A stretch of DNA of 64,000 nt from Neophaeotheca triangularis. Taxonomy: Eukaryota. A program made the position numbers and the translations under genes. Within the stretch, counting starts at the first letter, position 1; the number at the start of each line of letters is the position of its first letter. The stretch spans positions 310,001 to 374,000 of the forward strand of contig BAAIJX010000008.1 of assembly GCA_054600435.1 (NCBI GenBank), given 5' to 3'. The notes below the pieces were generated by a model, which was given only the letters and a program-made list of their open reading frames with translations, had not been told where the DNA came from and did not search any database. Below are positions 35,045 to 59,794 of the stretch, piece by piece.

Positions 35045-36492
35045 TCAATACCAGCCCCGCCCCTGCATCCCTTGCCCCTCCTCCTCCTCACGATGCGGGA
35101 TCATGGGCTTCCTGATCTCAAAAGCAGTACACAGCTTCCTCCAAGTGGCATAATCCAACGCCAGCACGGCCTGATGCTTGGCGGTATCCTTGCGCCTCTT
35201 ACCATTTGTATCCACCGCGCTTTGGCCCCCAGAAGGCATCAACGTCGGCAGCCCATCCGTGTCCGGCCCGACGCCCACGACACCTTCTTTGATGAGGAAA
35301 CTGACGTAGAAGAGGTTCTCGACGCTCTGGCCGAAAGAGTGCGGGTTGAGGGTGTAGTCGAAGAGGCTGGGTCCGCCCGTGGATGTCAAGCGGAGTTCTT
35401 TCAGTTTCGCGCGGCCGGCTTCTGAGTGGAGTTTCTCGCGCGTGTCGATACCAGACCGGCCGAGGGCCTTTTCCGACGTCCGGCAGTGCGCGAGAAGGTG
35501 CTGGTGGATGCGCTTACAGACGGCCGTGAGCCCGTTCTCGTCGGTTTGCGATAGGTGTTCGCGACTCAGGGCTTCTGGGCGGGATTCTTGGACGTTTCTG
35601 TCTTGAGTTTGGCGCGCGCGGCGTTGGACTTGGGTTCGGACCCTTTTCTCTACGGAGAGGGGTCCGAGGAGGAAGGTAGGCACGCTAGGGCGAGAAGTGT
35701 AGGGCATACAGGCGTGGCGGCCCAGCACTTCCCAGTCCAGGGCTTCGACGGAATCTTCGTCGTCTTCATGGTCGTCATGGTTTTGAGTGCGCCGGCGACG
35801 GGTAGAGGAAGATGTCTCCGCGTCGTTGCGCATGAATGTGATGCATTTGCTCACGAACTCATCGAGATCGAGACCTGTGGTGCCGTCGCTGACAACAAGC
35901 TGGGCTGCCTTTTTCTGTGCAAGATCGGATACTTCTACTAGTAAGCGCGAATCCAGTGTTGCGTCGCTGGTTTGTTTGACCTCTTCGAAAAGAGCGTTGG
36001 CGCGTTTTACTGTATCGTTGAGCTGTTCGCCTGTGCCATGAAGGAGATCGTCGCGGCATTCTGACCAGGACGATATTAGTGTTGGCGATACCGTGCTTGC
36101 TCTACAGCCGGCTTACCTCTGAACTCTCTCTCCAGATCGCGCATTTGTCGCTTGACGTCTCGCCGCTCTTCAGGATCTTGCTTGGGGTCATAGTATCGAT
36201 TGAACTTGTCCTCGTCGTCGCGCAACGCTTCACTCTCCGAACGGATGCCTCCAACAGCAGCAGAGGCGCGTTTTCTCTTCTGGCCGCGTGCATCGCTACC
36301 ATTCGAAGTTGATGTTGGGAGGGAGTTGCGTGGAGGCGGCGGTGCCATGGCGCGCTGCTTGCCTCCGTTTCTAGCGGTGGGTTCTGAAGGATCCCGGTTT
36401 TCTTGATCGGAGGTTAGGTCTCGCGGGGCTGGGGTCTCGGATGGGTAGCGTGAGGAAGCGACAGTTGAAGGGCGCGTGTTAAGACGGGCCAT
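35045..36492 (-). CDS. NSE4: Smc5/6 complex kleisin subunit Nse4
   Basis: Motifs YYDPKQDPEERR, VKQTSDATLDSRLLV, FLLGPLSVEKR and NPHSFGQSVENLFYVSFLIKEG. Intron 36061-36116. Confidence 0.9.
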
Positions 36493-43602: not shown

Positions 43603-43625
43603 GATGACTTTTTTGGTATCTGCTG

Positions 43626-43665
43626 GTAGGGTAGGGTAGGGTAGGGTAGGGTAGGGTAGGGTAGG
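43626..43665 (+). repeat. (GTAGG)8 microsatellite just upstream of ESS1 ATG
   Basis: Tandem GTAGG units. Confidence 0.9.
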
Positions 43666-44457
43666 GGAGGGGTGTGTAAATGGTGTATGCACTGTATAGG
43701 CGGCGTGGTACGCTTCTAGAGGACGGGAAAGAGCTCGCTCGTCCAAGTGCAGGTGGTCGTACTTCCAGAATGGAAGCTAATGATTGCGACACTTCAGGCT
43801 GGGCTGTACAGTACTACCAGTAGACGGGCAAAAAGGTAAGGAATGGAAGGTATACCAAAGTTGGAAGAGGCTCGTTGGCACGAGGAAGGACAGACACGGG
43901 CAGACAGGCGCGGGGTTTGTCTAGTGTCTGTCAGTCTGTCTACCTAAGGTAACTAACCTTACCTAACCTTACCTATAGTAGGTAGCGACCCCACAGCAAC
44001 GATGGAAAGGTTCGTGACTGGCTCGTGCCTGGCAGGTGGACCCTGACTTCAGTAGCACTAGTAGTAGTAGTGTACTAGTGACTTGAGTCGACCGCAGTAG
44101 TGACTAGCGCCGTGCATTGATCATGTGCGCGCCGTGCCGTGCCGCGCCGCCTGTTGCCTGCCTGACATGAAGCGCTCCGACTTGGGCCTCTTCCTTTCAC
44201 TGCTCCCTTCCTGGTCTCTGCTCTCTACAACACCTACCCACAACTTCCGAGAGCAGACACGTCGCCCTTCACAAAGGTCAGTCAATTTGCAGCATTATCT
44301 ACTTCACTAGAGCAATAAACTTACACTCCCTCAAAGGCGCGTTGACGCTTCCAGACTCCCTTGCGCAGAAGCTTCCGAAAGCGGCGCTACCTTCACTCCA
44401 AACACCTCCCATTTTACGAATACCATCTTCACGCGCCAGTTCAGCAAGGTCGTCATC

Positions 44458-47264: not shown

Positions 47265-49784
47265 ATGGCGCCAAAGGCTAAACCTCCCGCCGCAGACCTA
47301 GCGGATGCCCTGAAGAAAAAGGGAGGACTCACTCTGACCCAACTCGCCGACTATGACGACCTCATCACCGACGCCCTGGTAGATAGGGTGTACTACTGGG
47401 CCAAGATCCGCAAACTCAGAGCCGCCTACCATCCCTCGCGTCGCATCAAGGAGCCCGACGTGTGCGAAATCTTGCGCGAGCAGGTCATCGTTCGCAAGGA
47501 TGCCGCGAAGGCGCAAGCCTTACTCTTGGCGCTGCCGGGTATTGCGCAGTACCACCAGTCGCGAAGCACCGCCGACGAAAAGGAGCACTTTGCGCGCCAT
47601 TTGCGCAAGTACGTCGACATCTACCTCCCGGACTGTCCTTTTGAAGTCGGGACCGTAAACCGGTACACCATCACTACACAAGAAGCCAGCATCATCGCCC
47701 GCAAACCGATCAAGAAGGGCCAGCCGATCAAATACTTGACTGGCATCCAAGTCAGCATGACCAAAGATGAGGAGAAGATTCTCGGCGACAACGACTTCTC
47801 CGTCATTCGCTCGAGTCGTAAGAAGCAGTCAAGTCTGTTTCTCGGGCCCGCGCGTTTCGCCAACCACGATTGCGATGCGAATGCCGATTTGCAGACCACG
47901 GGGAAGCATGGCATGTACATCAAGGCTGTCAAGGATATTGCCGTCGGCGAAGAGATCACGGTGCTTTATGGTGTGGATTACTTCGGGGCTGACAATTGCG
48001 AATGCTTGTGCGGGACTTGTGAGAATCTGAGGAGGAATGGGTGGGATCCTAGGGGACCCGTCATTTTCCCGGATACGGACGATGAGGAGGAAGAGGAGGA
48101 GGACATCAAGCCAAAATCGAATGCGAAGCAGATGAGTGGGAGGGCACGTAGTGAGACGCAGAAGAAGGGGCGCGAGGACTCGGAAGTCATCTCAAAAGCT
48201 ACACCTCCGAGCAAGAAGCGTAAAACGGAGCCACCGCCTGCGCGGGAAACGAAAGACACGCCAACCGCAGACTCAACTCAAGCTGCCTCCGGGGAGGAAA
48301 CAGTTCCAGCCAGGAGAGGAAGGGGACGACCAAAGAAGATACGATCCGAGGAGGAAGTGGCTCAAAAAACTCCAGAGCCAACGGTTCCAGAACCTGTAGG
48401 CCAGCATAGCGCATTTTCGAGCGCCAACGTTCTCACTGACATCGTCGAGATCTTGTATAGAGTGCATGATCGGATGAAGCAGGAACCCAAGGACGACGAA
48501 ACGCGAATGTCTGCTATTCCTGAAGCTAAACTTGCTTCCAAGCCAGCGGGCGAAGCTTCGACAGCAAACGCGCCATCGACTCGTGAGGAAAGCAAGGATA
48601 ACAAGCGCGCTCTGCCCAATCCCCCACACAGCGACCGACGCCGTAGCAGCAAGAGAATTAGAGGCGAAAACGTAGCTGAAGAAGCTTCCCGTCCTCTGAA
48701 GAAGTCTAAGCTTCAGCATATCAGCAAGACAAGCATCCAATCGCCTTTACGCAAAGTTACCAACGCAAAAGATGAAGCAGCAATCTACGACCAGATTGAG
48801 ACACCAGAGCCCGAGCCGGCTAAGAAACGAACGCTACCAATGCCATCTTTGCGCAAGAACGCCCGCTCTCGAGACGAGAGCTCCTCTACACCTCCATCAA
48901 CTCGCTCGAGCGATTCTCGACAGTCAGACGCATCCTCCGCAACCTCTCTAGATGATCGTCCCAACATCGCCCAGGGTATAGTAGCGCAATTGACCGGCAG
49001 CGTCGGTGAAGGCCCCGACCACTTCGACCCTTCAGAAATGCGCCGCCGACGCAACGCCATCAGCAGTGCTCGCCCTAGTGCCTCTCCCTCCGAAGAGGAA
49101 AGCAAAGACATCTTCGAGTTCGACGAAACCAACCAAGTCATCTCTCACCGACACCGCGCCGCCACCTCCGCCACTACAGCCACCACCCGAAGCACCACCA
49201 AAATCGCTACCGAAAACTCTTCCAAACCCACAGCGCCCACACCACCAATCCCCGAACCCGCGAAAAAGCGACACCTAACCCGCTCAAGCTCCGCCCGCGA
49301 CTCCCTCCAACCCGCCACCACGGCCATCAACACGATCGAACTGCCTACCGACCCTGACTCCGACGACGAAAACATCATCCGCGGCACCCCGCGTATCCCT
49401 GGCGACTACCTAGAATTCATCCCCACGCTATACAACAAATGGACCGACTGCCAAAACTGCGAGCAACTGTTCCTGCAAGGCGAGAAATTCCAAACGCGTA
49501 TCTTGTGTCAGGGCTGCGAGAGGCATGGCAAGCTGTATGGCTATGAGTGGCCGCGGACGGAGGAGCGCTGGGTGGGGGAGGAGCGGAAGTGGGATGCGAG
49601 GGGTTGGTGTCCTTTCAGGAGGCCGGAAGAGGTTCGAAGGGAGAAGAGAGATGGTAGTCGGAGAGAGAGTCGGAGTGGAGGCGGGAGTGATAGTGTTGTT
49701 GCGCCCACGCCGGGGGTGGAGAGTGAGGAGGTGGAGAGGGGAGGCCGGAGGTTACGGAGGGGAAGGAGTGGCGTAGGGCTGTAG
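47265..49784 (+). CDS. SET9: Histone H4K20 methyltransferase Set9 (Suv4-20 family)
   Basis: LADYDDLITDALVD, YLPDCPFE, LGPARFANHDC, GEEITVLYG..FG..NCECLCGTCE post-SET, and C-terminal CERHGKLYGYEWP. Confidence 0.92.
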   Translation: MAPKAKPPAADLADALKKKGGLTLTQLADYDDLITDALVDRVYYWAKIRKLRAAYHPSRRIKEPDVCEILREQVIVRKDAAKAQALLLALPGIAQYHQSRSTADEKEHFARHLRKYVDIYLPDCPFEVGTVNRYTITTQEASIIARKPIKKGQPIKYLTGIQVSMTKDEEKILGDNDFSVIRSSRKKQSSLFLGPARFANHDCDANADLQTTGKHGMYIKAVKDIAVGEEITVLYGVDYFGADNCECLCGTCENLRRNGWDPRGPVIFPDTDDEEEEEEDIKPKSNAKQMSGRARSETQKKGREDSEVISKATPPSKKRKTEPPPARETKDTPTADSTQAASGEETVPARRGRGRPKKIRSEEEVAQKTPEPTVPEPVGQHSAFSSANVLTDIVEILYRVHDRMKQEPKDDETRMSAIPEAKLASKPAGEASTANAPSTREESKDNKRALPNPPHSDRRRSSKRIRGENVAEEASRPLKKSKLQHISKTSIQSPLRKVTNAKDEAAIYDQIETPEPEPAKKRTLPMPSLRKNARSRDESSSTPPSTRSSDSRQSDASSATSLDDRPNIAQGIVAQLTGSVGEGPDHFDPSEMRRRRNAISSARPSASPSEEESKDIFEFDETNQVISHRHRAATSATTATTRSTTKIATENSSKPTAPTPPIPEPAKKRHLTRSSSARDSLQPATTAINTIELPTDPDSDDENIIRGTPRIPGDYLEFIPTLYNKWTDCQNCEQLFLQGEKFQTRILCQGCERHGKLYGYEWPRTEERWVGEERKWDARGWCPFRRPEEVRREKRDGSRRESRSGGGSDSVVAPTPGVESEEVERGGRRLRRGRSGVGL

Positions 49785-50475
49785 AGATACTTCTGAAGGG
49801 GCCCTGGCGATACGGGAGCTCTCGAGGCAAAGACCTCCGACGCTGGCGAGTCTTTGCGGAAAGCCGTTGTATCCTTTCAGCTGTAGCGCACGCGTCTCAA
49901 AGGCGTTCCCGCTCGGGAAATGCTCGTATTGGTACCCATCACAGCCATGACGCATATCTAAACAATTGCCATCAAACTTGAACGATTCGTCTCCGGTCCC
50001 CCTGAAATAGACTCTCAACCACAACCAGTCGTCCACGCTCTCTTCGCTCGAAACAATGATCTTACTCTTCCACAAGACTCGTTCGTCTTTTTGTGAGAAT
50101 GGAGCCAGCATAATTTGTCTTCGGCTAACTACGATTCTCAAGTTCTAATCGCTCGTCACGATATATGGCTGCTAGACGTGACCAGTTGAAAACGAGATCA
50201 TCGACAACAGGAGCAGAAGAGCAGCGCCCTCAACTTCCACTGAGCTAATATCGCCTAGCGAAAAGGGATGCTGTTGTGACATCCAGTCCACAGTAGAAAG
50301 GCCCCCATACACCAAGGCGCCTCCGTTTCTGTAGCATGTGGTGTAGAAAACCCCGGAACGCCGCAGTGATAGTAGCATAATACTGTTGTCAGCGGTCTTG
50401 ACTCTGACCGTCCTGCTATTCGAACAAAACAGCAGCACAGCAAAGCAAAAGTGCAAAGACCAGCTCTTCACCCGG

Positions 50476-50750
50476 AAAAAGTTCGAGAAAGGGTCAGCGC
50501 CAGCGAAAAGAGCAAAACCTGAGTCTCTTCACCCGTATCTAAGCCCTAGAATATGGGAGTGAAGAGCCAGTAAACACGTTTAGCCCACCTAGCCAAGCAT
50601 TAAGGGCGGGCACCTTCTTTTACTCTAGCATTTAGAATCAAGAAGGCCGGTTTCTACCAGGACGGGAATCGAACGAACGACCCCCGCCTAGTAGGGGAAA
50701 GGGGAGGGGGGACACACTCGCCCCACTAGACCATAAGTCTTCCGGGTGCA
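50476..50750 (-). ncRNA. Candidate Pol III-transcribed structured ncRNA or tRNA-derived SINE-like unit (not a canonical tRNA)
   Basis: Minus strand: TATA at ~50779-50788, A box TGGTCTAGTGG (50733-50723), B box GTTCGATTC (50674-50666), several stem-loops and a T5 run at 50480-50476. Boundaries are approximate. Confidence 0.5.
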
Positions 50751-51589
50751 AGTGTGATGGGGGAATTGCGGTGCTTGTTAAATATATAGCTTTATTTTTG
50801 AATGACTTACTCCTGGCATTGCAGAGTGAAGTCTACCCAGAGACAGCTTGCAACTGGCAAAGTTAGCCGGTCTTGCTGACGGCTGACCTGCCCTTTTCTG
50901 GCCCTTCTGGTGGCTTGTCTTTCTCTACGGAAGTGAAGAGGGAAGCTCTTTTGTTACCCATCACACTGGACGTATTTACGAGCCTCGTAATCCGCTAAGG
51001 GAATGGAAATCGGCCAGACAACCGCATGCTTCTCTTCACAGCTCGTAGGCGCTGCTCGCTTCTGCACATCGAGGTGCAGAGGATAGGTCGAAGATGCCGA
51101 CCCGGGAGGGGAAAGCGTCGACGGGATTGGGGCTTGCATCAAGTCTGCCGCTGCGGCTTTGAGAGCTGACGGTAGGCTGGTAACGATCTTGGGTAGGACG
51201 CTTTCGACTAGTGTGCTGATAATGGACTTACTGTAGCGAGTATTGAGGTTCTTGCGCCTAGAGTTTGTGGTGCACACTGATCTGTGCTACTGCCTGCCTC
51301 GATAAAGACCTGCGAGCGAGGTCTACAGGGAGGTAATTTTCGAGCTGGTCTTCGGACATGTGATCGAGTTGGTGATGTGACCTTGTGATGTTACAGCGAA
51401 CAAAGGGAGATTGTGCTACTACCTACCGCCGCATAGTAACTAGTTCAGTGCAGTCCGCAAGGGGCGCTAGGATATACAATTGGTAGCCTGAGCCCACGAG
51501 ATTACCGCAAGCTACAATGTGCGCTGTTCAAGACCACCCCGCAAAACCCTCTCCCGCTAAGCAAGACCGGGTGCCTATGGTAACCAATC

Positions 51590-52777
51590 ACTGAGCGTAG
51601 TAATCAACGAATTCGGGCCCATATCATCTCAGAACCGTCTCTATAACTTCGGATTCACTCGCGCAGCTGGCTTTTACCCAGACTAACCTACCGAGGGTAA
51701 AGAAAGCTTGAGACCTCGCTGTCACTTGTACACCTTCTCGCTCTGTCCTTAGCGCCCGCACATGCTCTGGTATGTAGTTCCTTGTCTACGAAACTGTCAT
51801 ATTCAGCGGCAAGCTCTGAAAGAAGGGTATGGAGTACCTGACACTGCTGTCAGGGCCGGGCGCTATCACGCGGTGGGTTGTCGCTTTGACAGCGCCCTCT
51901 GTCGCGGCTTCGAAAGCGTTGCCAAAGTTAACGACGAAGGTGCCGGGTACGGGCGGTGCTCTTAGCCATGTAACGTCCGAGCCCAGGACTTCTAGCCCTT
52001 CTTCTTCACCTACTCCTACTTGATACAGAAACGTGAGCCAGCCGGTGGAGTCTTTGTGCGCTCCAACGCCTTGGGAGCGGCTAGATGCGCTTGTAGGTGG
52101 GTACCGTAGGAGCTTGATGCGGTGCTGTGGCAATAGTGTTGCCGAAACAGTGGAAGAATATCTACCCTTGGGGTCACGAGATGTTGCTTCCTGAAAAAGT
52201 GATCGAAAGTGCCAACGGGTATATCAAAAGCTTCTTTGATAAGATGGACGAAGCGGTGGGATAGCGCCTGGACCTCGTCATGGTACCTGGTCAGCGCCTC
52301 TCTGAAGCCCGGGAGGACGGAAGGCTTCGGCCACTGGTTCGGGCCTCGAAGGCCAAAATAGGGTGGAGTCCCTCCGAACCCGATGTCTGAGCCAATTTCC
52401 CCGCCTACAGCTTCTAGCCTCTTGCCATCAGGACAGATAATCTCACGTACTGCGGGGAGTTCCGTGGCAAAATCAAACTGTTCTCTCAAGTCTTGCTTGC
52501 CAAGCGTGGTCTCTTCGGCGTAACCAGAGTAACCGAGAAAGTGACAGCTGTTCAGCTTGCTCATTGCCTTTTTCTCCTCAGTAGAGAGGTCGAAGAGCGA
52601 CGGTAGCACCGACACCAGATCGTCTATGGCATCTTGTTAGACGCCATGATTCTTGATGTCCAAAAAGCCAATGTCGAAGAGGGCAGTGTGAAGCTGCCCC
52701 AGAAGCTCCCAGTTTTTACTCGAGCCTTGTGACAATGAGAGATCTAGAAGTGTGATTGTGTTTTGGTCCGATGTCAT
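51590..52777 (-). pseudogene. Disrupted 2-oxoglutarate/Fe(II) dioxygenase (IPNS/DIOX_N family)
   Basis: ALFDIGFLDIKNHG, FLGYSGYAEETT..DLREQFDF, GPNQWP, HKDSTGWLTFL, VVNFGNAFE..ATTHRV..RYSIPFF. In-frame stops at 52637, 51786, 51688 and 51655 plus frameshifts. Confidence 0.85.
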
Positions 52778-53715
52778 GGAAGCCGTTTGTTTCTCAATGC
52801 GGATGATCAGCCGACCTATAATCTCGTACTCCGTGGGGCTAGATTCCACTCTCGAATCGCAAAGTCAGGGTCCGCAACGATTAACCCCCAGTTATTTGAG
52901 TAGTAGCAAACCCCCGTCAAATGTCTGATTTTCTGTCAAGGCGAGTCGCTGTATTGGAATTAGCTTAGCCAGGGCGATAGCGATGTAGTAGTAAGCAGTT
53001 CGAAGAGCCGGTTCGTAGGTCGCCTGAAGGCAATCTACGTCACTCAGGGGCGTTGTTGTCCGATCGACCAAAGTAAGGCTCAATGATACTACATTCTGAG
53101 ATATTGCTGATAAGCAATCGCATGTCTCCGGCTACCACCAATCGCGCAAAGGTGGGTGGTAAGAGAGAAAGGACGGGTTGGGGAGGTGAGGTTAAAATAA
53201 AAGCGGGTACGTTAAGCCACTTTGAGCGGGCTTGGCATCCATGGATTAGAAGGAGGCCGTTCTCGCTGCTCTGGCTTGTCAGGTATTCTGGACTCTATGA
53301 CCCCGACCACTAGCATGGATGCAATCATGAGAGAAGATACCTTGTAGAAGGTTGTCCCCTATACCTCTGTAATAAGGTTGCCACTCCGCTCTTCAGGCAT
53401 ACTTCCTCACGTCTCCCGGCGCACAAAGGGAAATGTAAGTACTGCGCCCATCCCCATCTTCTTGCCCCAATGTCCATCTCTCTTGCCTCTACTTATCCGT
53501 ACGTATACCTTCGTTCGATGAAAGTTGCCCAGTGCGGTTGTGAAGCCAACTTTTAGACTCTTGTGCATTGTTCCCAGCAGCGTAAAGCAAAGCACCTTCC
53601 TCCATACCACCTCACGTGAGCTCCCAACCGTTGCCATCACAACAGCTACACCAACACCGACCGGGCTCCTTCTCAAATTCGTGACATCGGCCAAGAAAAC
53701 ATCAACCCTGCCAAA

Positions 53716-58134: not shown

Positions 58135-59794
58135 CTAGCTTTGCTTGCACTCAGCGGCCTCCTGTTTAGGTTTTGAGCCATCCTCCTGCACGAATTAGCA
58201 TGTTTGACTTGGCCCAGCTGGAGGGAGTGCCGTCGCCACTTACCGCATCCTCGTCCTCGTCTTCGTCATCCTCGTCACGGTCCTCGTCCTCGTCATCTTC
58301 GTCGTCCTCGTCCTCAAACTCGTCCTCCTCGAAGTCGTCGAGGTCTTGCTCGAACCTGAGCGCCTCGCCAGTGAACCAGTCGATGGCGCGCGGGATAAGC
58401 TTCTCCTTGATGTCCTCGCCGAGCTGGTAGTCGAGTTCGAGCTTGGCTTCGATGTCCTCGTCAACCTCGTCGTCCTCGTCCTGCGGTGGGGAGGCTGGGT
58501 TGAAAAAGTCGAAGAAAGATGGGGTGGGAATGGACTTCCTGACGATGCGGGTCTGCTTGGTGTCTGCAGAACGGGTTAGTATTTGGGACCACCAAGTTTC
58601 TGAGCGCGTCAAGACTCACTCTTATTCCTCTGCTTCTTGCTCTCGACCCTGGTGGTGAGGTCCTTGTCGGCCTTCCACTCGATCTTGTCACCCTCGGCGT
58701 GGTCGTAAATGAAGTCGCCACCGTAGCCGTTCTCCTCCTGGTAGTAGTATGTCTTCTTGAGTTCCTTGTTGGTGAAGAAGTCGTTGTCCTCAAACTGGAA
58801 AATGAGCCTGAAGCCAGGACGGTCGAGGTACTCCATGCGGATGTCTGTAAGATGCTTGAGGGCCTCTTCGTCGCGCTCGGTGATGGTCTCAGCAAGCGAA
58901 GAGTTCTTCATGGCGCTGAGCCAGAACTCTGGGATACCCTTGAGGTCGGTGGCAGCCTGCTCCTCCTTTTGCTCTGGCTTCTTCTCAGCCTCTTCCTCCT
59001 CGTCATCCTCCTCGTCTTCCTCGCCAGCCTCAATTTCCTGTTCGCTGGGATCGGCGTGGCCGTTGACGATCTTGGAGCGCTTCTCGTATAGCGGGGTGAA
59101 CTTCTTGAAGAATTGCTTCTCAAGGTCCAACACAGCCTCCTGGAACTCGGCCTCGAGCTTGGCATGCTCCTTTTGCACACCTTTGAGACCTGCGACACGC
59201 TTCCTGACCTGAGGTGGGAGGTTCTCGACGTAGCCCGATGACTTGCCGACAAGACCTTGGAGTTTGTTCTGCATCATGGAGACGAGCTTGGGGTTTTGCG
59301 CGAAGATGGAAGCGGCGGCGGCGCGGTCCATGTCCTCTGTTGTACGGTACTTAGCATCCGAAGTTGGAGGAGAGTCTTTGGCATCTGCGGTCGCATCATT
59401 ACCTTCTTTGATAGAGCTCACGGCCGGAGCCTGGGCGCGCGAAGAGATTGGCGCATTGTTTGCGGGCGTGTTTTGGGGGGTTCTAAGATCCATGACGTTA
59501 GAGACAAAGAGGGAGTGAAGGGGCAGACAGATGTGGTGAGTATGAAAGGGTAGAAAGAGTAAAAGAGTAGAGGTGAAGTGGAAGTAGGTAGTAGTGAAAC
59601 GAGGATGTGTGCAGTGTGTGTAGTGTAGTGTAGTGTAGGTGAGGGTGGGGTTTTGCGTGGCAGATAAAATTTCACTTGTCCGCGTTGCAGAGCAGCAGAG
59701 GGGCGGGCGGGTACTTGTGGATGGGGGGGGTTTGACGGGTAAGGTATCTGACTTACGGTGCAGGCTGCGCGGCGCTGCCCTTTTTGAAGTCCAT
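58135..59794 (-). CDS. NAP1: Nucleosome assembly protein Nap1
   Basis: [67 protein letters not shown], acidic tail and C-terminal CKQS. Introns 59483-59756, 59337-59402, ~58565-58619 and ~58188-58243. Confidence 0.95.

Follow-up and report, generated by a model that had tools for sequence, protein, structure and literature searches.

We examined a 64-kb window (the whole stretch of DNA analysed) of fungal, gene-dense DNA with a G+C content of ~54%. The element described here lies in an intergenic gap of ~1.9 kb, flanked by a SET-domain gene on the plus strand (stop at 49784) and a 2-oxoglutarate dioxygenase gene on the minus strand. The latter gene (51700–52780, minus strand; DIOX_N, 2-oxoglutarate/Fe(II) dioxygenase) is interrupted by an in-frame stop codon close to its start, by a frameshift and by a further stop, and looks like a pseudogene. 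Elsewhere, a pentamer microsatellite lies in the gap that precedes an RPB9-like gene (43615–43679), and a similar microsatellite is found at 59619–59653. The adenylosuccinate synthetase of the window was 78–80% identical to proteins of Cladosporium, Oleoguttula, Acrodontium, and Cryoendolithus, the best named matches, and 92% identical to one further protein. Judged by these identities, we place the host among Capnodiales-type Dothideomycetes, without a close relative among the named matches.

The gap carries, on the minus strand, the TATA element, A box and B box that an earlier note on this DNA had reported, at the spacings it gave (Table 1). We searched both strands of the window for A- and B-box consensus patterns and estimated chance expectation from 60 simulated windows. 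One A+B pair was found against a mean of 0.1 expected, and its spacing of 48 nt, as read from these patterns, is workable for a Pol III type 2 gene. TATAWAW sites were scarce, with only five on both strands of the window, one being the TATA of the element. The sole other B-box-like site of the window (54817, plus strand) falls within the reading frame of an MFS transporter and has no A box at a workable distance.

A tRNA gene was considered and rejected: there is no cloverleaf, as had been noticed before, ARAGORN returned 0 genes, no tRNA model matched at E ≤ 10, and the B box lies in a register unlike that of a tRNA T arm. Rfam gave 0 matches to the element at the gathering threshold; at E ≤ 10 it gave only four chance matches (CRISPR-DR41, STnc320, mir-301, and mir-204; E 3.7–4.4), far below gathering. 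A search of the element for hallmark motifs was negative for the C box, the Sm site, RNase P/MRP, SRP, U6, and the telomere template, in line with the earlier reader, who by eye had not found hallmarks of RNase P, SRP, U6, or C/D-box RNAs; what there was amounted to a single CTGA plus two ANANNA within H1. The description of a structured, Pol III-type, non-tRNA element holds on its boxes, its fold and the Rfam and ARAGORN negatives, and the element, though no tRNA, would work in the manner of a Pol III type 2 gene.

Table 1. Features of the element and its surroundings (p, pairing probability in the predicted fold).
Feature	Position	Strand	Remarks
Unit shared with other copies	50500..50807	-	upstream promoter region, transcribed part and ~14 nt past first T4
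TATA element	50779..50789	-	~33 to 23 nt upstream of inferred start (~50758-50756)
Hairpin HA	50713..50756	-	5' end of predicted RNA; A box in 3' arm; p 0.81-1.0
A box	50723..50733	-	45 nt past TATA; consensus pattern match
C/U-rich unpaired linker	50695..50712	-	indels at 50697 and 50710 among copies
Hairpin H0	50654..50694	-	17 pairs; loop and 3' arm contain the B box; p ≥ 0.98
B box	50666..50674	-	48 nt past A box; free position 50668
Hairpin H1	50612..50647	-	basal stem without listed change; inner stem varies among copies
Hairpin H2	50583..50611	-	listed changes in loop (50604, 50597); loose end at 50598
Hairpin H3	50519..50570	-	directly 5' of first T4; most repeated part; candidate small-RNA precursor
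Alternative 3' fold	50502..50578	-	helices 50578-63/50534-47 and 50533-24/50502-11; exclusive with H3
Two T4 runs	50506..50517	-	50517-14 and 50509-06; candidate weak terminators within shared unit
First T5	50476..50480	-	candidate terminator of this copy; single-copy depth 139.5 vs background 132
Diverged tandem repeat of 50535-50490	50430..50473	-	period 62, 11-nt exact core; locus-specific
Long imperfect hairpin H5	50388..50460	-	downstream of T5, single copy; -31.2 kcal/mol, p ≥ 0.9; uncertain unit member

Predicted fold and 3' end

The segment 50758–50514 (245 nt, minus strand), whose ends were picked post hoc after earlier folds, folded at −102.4 kcal/mol with a z of −5.4, better than all 200 shuffles; its antisense gave a z of −3.6. 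All 204 control windows of equal length (12 shuffles each) folded more weakly than the element, the lowest at a z of −5.18 and the next at −3.78. The control at −5.18 (35641–35885, minus strand) lies inside an Nse4 reading frame, in a repeat-rich acidic stretch, and its value is probably a codon-repeat effect.

The predicted RNA consists of five hairpins, HA, H0, H1, H2, and H3. Stems of H1 (50646/50613), H2 (50611/50583), and H3 (50566/50525) had already been recognised and occur exactly there, whereas HA and H0, in which nearly all pairs had p ≥ 0.96, had been overlooked. A further proposed hairpin, H4 (50513/50463), was not predicted: none of its pairs exceeded p 0.3 when that region was folded, and it lies mostly outside the part common to other copies. 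A motif common to the loops of H1 and H2 was dropped, as it was not kept by the copies.

The fold of the 3' end depends on where the RNA stops. H3 folded alone reached a z of only −2.05; its p was 0.97 and 0.92 if the RNA ends at a T4 run and 0.07–0.15 in longer transcripts. Read-through RNA is predicted to adopt the alternative 3' fold (p 0.93 at 263 nt), whose end at 50502 matches the family boundary. Either of these folds could be the real one. Both T4 runs and the T5 described in the earlier note are present, in the order T4, T4, T5, and T4 is shorter than the T5–T6 reported as the minimum of yeast Pol III terminators (PMC5095917). The length of ~270 nt first suggested is about right if termination needs T5 (283 nt); T4, if it suffices, would give 245 nt. 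Past the first T5, the tandem repeat runs into H5, and the segment 50480–50361 (minus strand) folds at a z of −4.8.

Copies in the genome and their variation

We matched contigs of four sequencing runs to 49600–51399 at 80% likeness; three of the four contained words of the stretch, and no RNA run was listed among those that did. Two runs were informative, X1, which may be the source of the window, and X2, a diverged strain from the same study; X3, with one 151-nt contig at depth 2, was left out, and X4 gave 0 contigs. Outside the element, depth was flat and single-copy (132 in X1, ~125 in X2). Inside it, the fold-depth (X1/X2) was 15.0/15.3 at 50500–59 and 9.9/12.3 at 50560–619, and further 5' it was 3.0/2.9, then 4.7/1.7, then 2.1/1.2; it returned to single copy below 50500 and above ~50810. 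Because overlapping contigs were counted twice, summed contig depth is not copy number: depth at single positions was 2- to 8-fold, and the summed figure of ~15-fold is rough. Distinct 5' flanks indicate at least four loci in X1: besides this locus, these are record 5 (11.6 kb), record 7 (30 kb), and a copy with a loose end at 50741. Depths of the listed contig pieces were 110–142 against a background of 132, from which we infer that the listed copies are paralogues of one genome and not alleles or contaminants.

Other loose ends were located at 50500 and 50501 (X1), at 50496 and 50524 (X2), and at 50653 and 50807; the one at 50524 belongs to a copy in which T4 is followed by T5. The locus is present in both strains, which also agree in the loose ends at 50598 and 50741 and have a similar depth profile. 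Record 5 aligned over 50564–50807; the alignment covers the TATA region and reaches ~50 nt beyond the predicted start on its upstream side, after which the sequence of record 5 was unrelated; it differed from the element by 27 substituted letters and 9 gap letters in 241. In another copy, the likeness continued, in a 30-letter loose end, for 12 nt or more past the point where HA starts (compared by hand). Within the 64-kb window there was no second copy, the best BLAST match being 25 nt long (E 0.006) and inside a coding region. The element is therefore a member of a multi-copy set with different flanks that matches no known family. The earlier note had named a structured ncRNA, a milRNA precursor, and a SINE side by side; its structured Pol III-type character and the want of an Rfam family stand, while the multi-copy nature could not be seen from the sequence it had and the three readings had been left unranked.

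The B box of the visible copies had three letters at the free position 50668, with the fixed positions intact. In H0, one copy had a pair-keeping change at 50668 and another had an equivalent stem with a double change (by hand). Of seven listed stem changes in HA and H0, five were one-sided and pair-keeping, one was double, and one broke a terminal pair; these were read by hand from the listed changes and the loose ends with partner bases mostly assumed, and the structure of the copies rests on this hand reading. Three of the four listed substitutions inside the predicted RNA fell at unpaired places. Against this, 7 of the 12 listed indels were in the inner stem of H1 and the other five in loops or the linker, with none in basal stems. 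The pair-keeping changes are few, and we regard the one-sided ones as weak evidence for the structure; pseudogenes and misalignment can distort covariation-type counts, as PMC11234323 notes. The copies themselves supply variation on which the covariation question would be directly testable from the assembly.

At this locus, X2 had 0 substitutions in the 130 positions of 50443–50572 and 43 in 1,300 outside (p = 0.03, region chosen post hoc), and whole-unit conservation in the worst case gave p = 0.085. These values are weak evidence for conservation of this copy in the strain. In H5, X2 had 10 substitutions within 50390–50442 that broke six pairs of the present register, and five of them gave Watson–Crick pairs in a shifted register (both by hand); either selection for a hairpin or a template-switch mutation could explain these changes. 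The same strain is without 46 bases at 50308–50355, by which a T4 run downstream of H5 is lost. Over 49954–50087, X2 has two contigs with only half the usual depth (59.5 and 65), as might be seen if the strain carried two alleles or the culture were mixed.

We also looked for relatives beyond these runs. A metagenome scan for the exact H3 arms plus the T run returned 18 loci, 0 of which had a BLAST match to the element or an upstream B box, and a stricter exact 3' motif occurred in none of the viral contigs and prokaryote genomes scanned, as expected for a fungal element. These scans say little about homologs because they used exact motifs on mostly non-fungal data. Six of the metagenome loci (L004, L005, L007, L010, L013, and L017) shared clusters of a short inverted motif with many repeats, unrelated to the element, and several of the six were gut-type by name or look. 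A literature search, with supplements and most subscription papers outside its scope (small-RNA or repeat catalogues among these may include the family), found no prior description of such a family in Dothideomycetes. Six 12-letter motifs of the element led to no related paper among those listed, judged by title, and PMC5640933 describes 15 fungal motifs that, as far as title and context tell, are all different from the element.

Explanations for the family

With slightly more than half of our confidence, we interpret the element as belonging to a small, dispersed family of functional Pol III ncRNA genes of a Capnodiales-type fungus, perhaps pri-milRNAs, with a tRNA-type (type 2) promoter inside the gene, a TATA upstream of it and a transcript predicted from the DNA. 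From established Pol III biology, TFIIIC would bind the A and B boxes and TFIIIB the TATA element, recruiting Pol III; transcription would start near 50757 and end at T4 (245–253 nt) or at the first T5 (283 nt). Comparison of the copies suggests that the 5' half (HA, linker, and H0) serves as a promoter carrier that drifts faster. The 3' domain (50653–50500) is the likely working part, because it is kept most alike among copies. The copies probably spread at the DNA level, as sequence upstream of the start is shared.

The product is a matter of guesswork. If it is a pri-milRNA, to which we assign about half of the weight of the gene-family interpretation, H3 would be cut to yield a U-starting RNA of 21–25 nt, taken from the arm that immediately precedes the T run. 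A T run directly follows the milRNA in Neurospora milR-1 to milR-4 (PMC3547838). Most good fungal milRNA loci are described as lineage-specific (PMC9757828), and fox_milRNA_1 of Fusarium is given 7 loci (PMC4139310). H3 is a hairpin with a U-starting 3' arm before a T run only if the predicted RNA ends at T4. The milRNA step is weakened, because T4 is below the yeast minimum given in PMC5095917 and H3 refolds in longer transcripts. About as likely is a stable structured RNA of the RUF70 type, which might be kept whole or be cut down to its 3' domain.

The alternative that survives best, possible though on balance unlikely, is a low-copy tRNA-type SINE, that is, an A/B-headed Pol III transcript retroposed by a LINE, the repeated 3' part being the tail that the LINE recognises. 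The depth drop from 15x at the 3' end to 2–5x at the 5' end is what 5'-truncated retrocopies would also give. Nevertheless, the copy that is unaligned at its 5' end keeps the B box and its stem and is thus diverged, not truncated. Three 3' flanks diverge within 50496–50501, as at the end of a SINE, but there is no A tail or short tandem tail, and the 3' loose ends of the copies are T/G/C-rich and differ from one another. A search for a target-site duplication (TSD) in this copy, comparing each of the two 5' boundary zones with the 3' end of the shared unit, gave no exact repeat of at least 5 nt; one 6-nt match further out is background, since 57 of 300 random zone pairs reach at least 6. This negative concerns this copy alone, and old TSDs can decay. 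An RNA intermediate would not carry the sequence that two copies share upstream of the predicted start, and the presence of the locus in both strains also speaks against a SINE. The A/B head without a cloverleaf, the length of ~250–300 bp and the low, dispersed copy number recall the AfuSINE2 families (PMC5063351), and active SINEs likewise keep boxes and structure. On the sequences compared, the copy data appear to favour the gene family over a SINE.

A more specific version of the gene-family interpretation, which we hold to be decidedly unlikely, posits an undescribed class of functional fungal Pol III RNA genes with boxes in non-tRNA hairpins and a conserved, fold-switching 150-nt domain. 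That domain would switch its fold at the T4 runs, where termination and read-through would yield different RNAs, either a precursor of small RNA or a compact RNA of several helices.

Very unlikely is a non-autonomous DNA element (MITE or Helitron), or a TFIIIC-binding chromatin-boundary repeat that yields no useful RNA. The unit does span both sides of the predicted transcript, and in three copies including this one the shared part ends on a four-letter word (read by hand) that fits the 3' consensus of Helitrons. Helitrons have a 5' TC, a 3' CTRR with a short hairpin, and an insertion site between A and T. However, one copy departs inside the 3' word, the base after it in the present copy differs from the usual T, and the flanks of this copy do not fit (by hand); any terminal inverted repeat is at most 5 nt long. 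The strand-biased folding (z −5.4 vs −3.6) together with exchanges of G.U to A-U, G-C, or C-G suggests pairing at the RNA level.

Strong divergence of a known Pol III RNA (RNase P/MRP, SRP, U6, or an snR52-like snoRNA) behind a promoter-bearing leader is highly improbable, as Rfam gave no match at gathering, the hallmarks searched for are absent, and genes of the RNase P/MRP, SRP, U6, and snoRNA types are not usually many-copy. Boxes at the 5' side and a distinct 3' domain do recall RNase P RNA, from which the promoter elements are cut off (PMC5095917), and the analogy with RPR1 and snR52 leaders drawn in the earlier note goes no further than this layout, hallmarks of RNase P, C/D, Sm, SRP, or U6 type being absent. 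Least probable of all is that the motifs arose by chance in intergenic DNA or that the element is a dead relic: the post hoc ends leave some room for this, but TATA, A box, B box, a strong fold, and multiple copies occur jointly, so that pure chance is largely refuted.

Comparison with known systems

Fungal Pol III genes outside tRNA and 5S form a short list, mostly from yeasts and Neurospora. If the gene-family interpretation is true, this Dothideomycete would extend the set by a structured Pol III family with multiple copies, a kind of gene that would escape Rfam and tRNA scans. It would then show how A/B-box promoters can give rise to new RNA genes, in the borderland of gene families and SINEs. 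Should the element be a SINE instead, it would count as a new but ordinary fungal repeat.

Several described systems share features with the element. The GC-rich ncRNA family of Plasmodium falciparum has ~15 dispersed copies and Pol III promoter elements, a likeness by description only with an unrelated organism in which the family is tied to var gene clusters (PMC9262227). AfuSINE2 of Aspergillus fumigatus is alike in its A/B boxes, described lack of a cloverleaf, low copy number and size (140–493 bp), and unlike in its TSDs of 4–14 bp, degenerate boxes and, in one case, LINE-like tail (PMC5063351). The present element, by comparison, has no TSD, near-consensus boxes, and shared upstream sequence. 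Yeast RPR1 (PMC5095917) and SNR52 carry A/B boxes in a non-tRNA 5' part, whereas our element lacks RNase P and C/D hallmarks and an Rfam match and is multi-copy.

The milR-1 to milR-4 genes of Neurospora crassa resemble the element in being intergenic and short, with a TATA-like element and a hairpin followed by a T run (PMC3547838). The legend of Fig. 2 in that source marks putative A and B boxes on some of them; milR-1 is described as ~170 nt long without A or B box, and milR-4 as tRNA-linked (PMC3547838). The element differs from these genes in its full A+B promoter, five predicted hairpins, and many copies. RUF70 of Yarrowia lipolytica is likewise a lineage-restricted, structured Pol III RNA, with 13 dispersed copies and compensatory changes; unlike the element, it is 70 nt long, lacks its own promoter and is excised from a genuine tRNA-Trp (PMC2566860). 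The boxes of the present element, in contrast, lie in non-tRNA hairpins.
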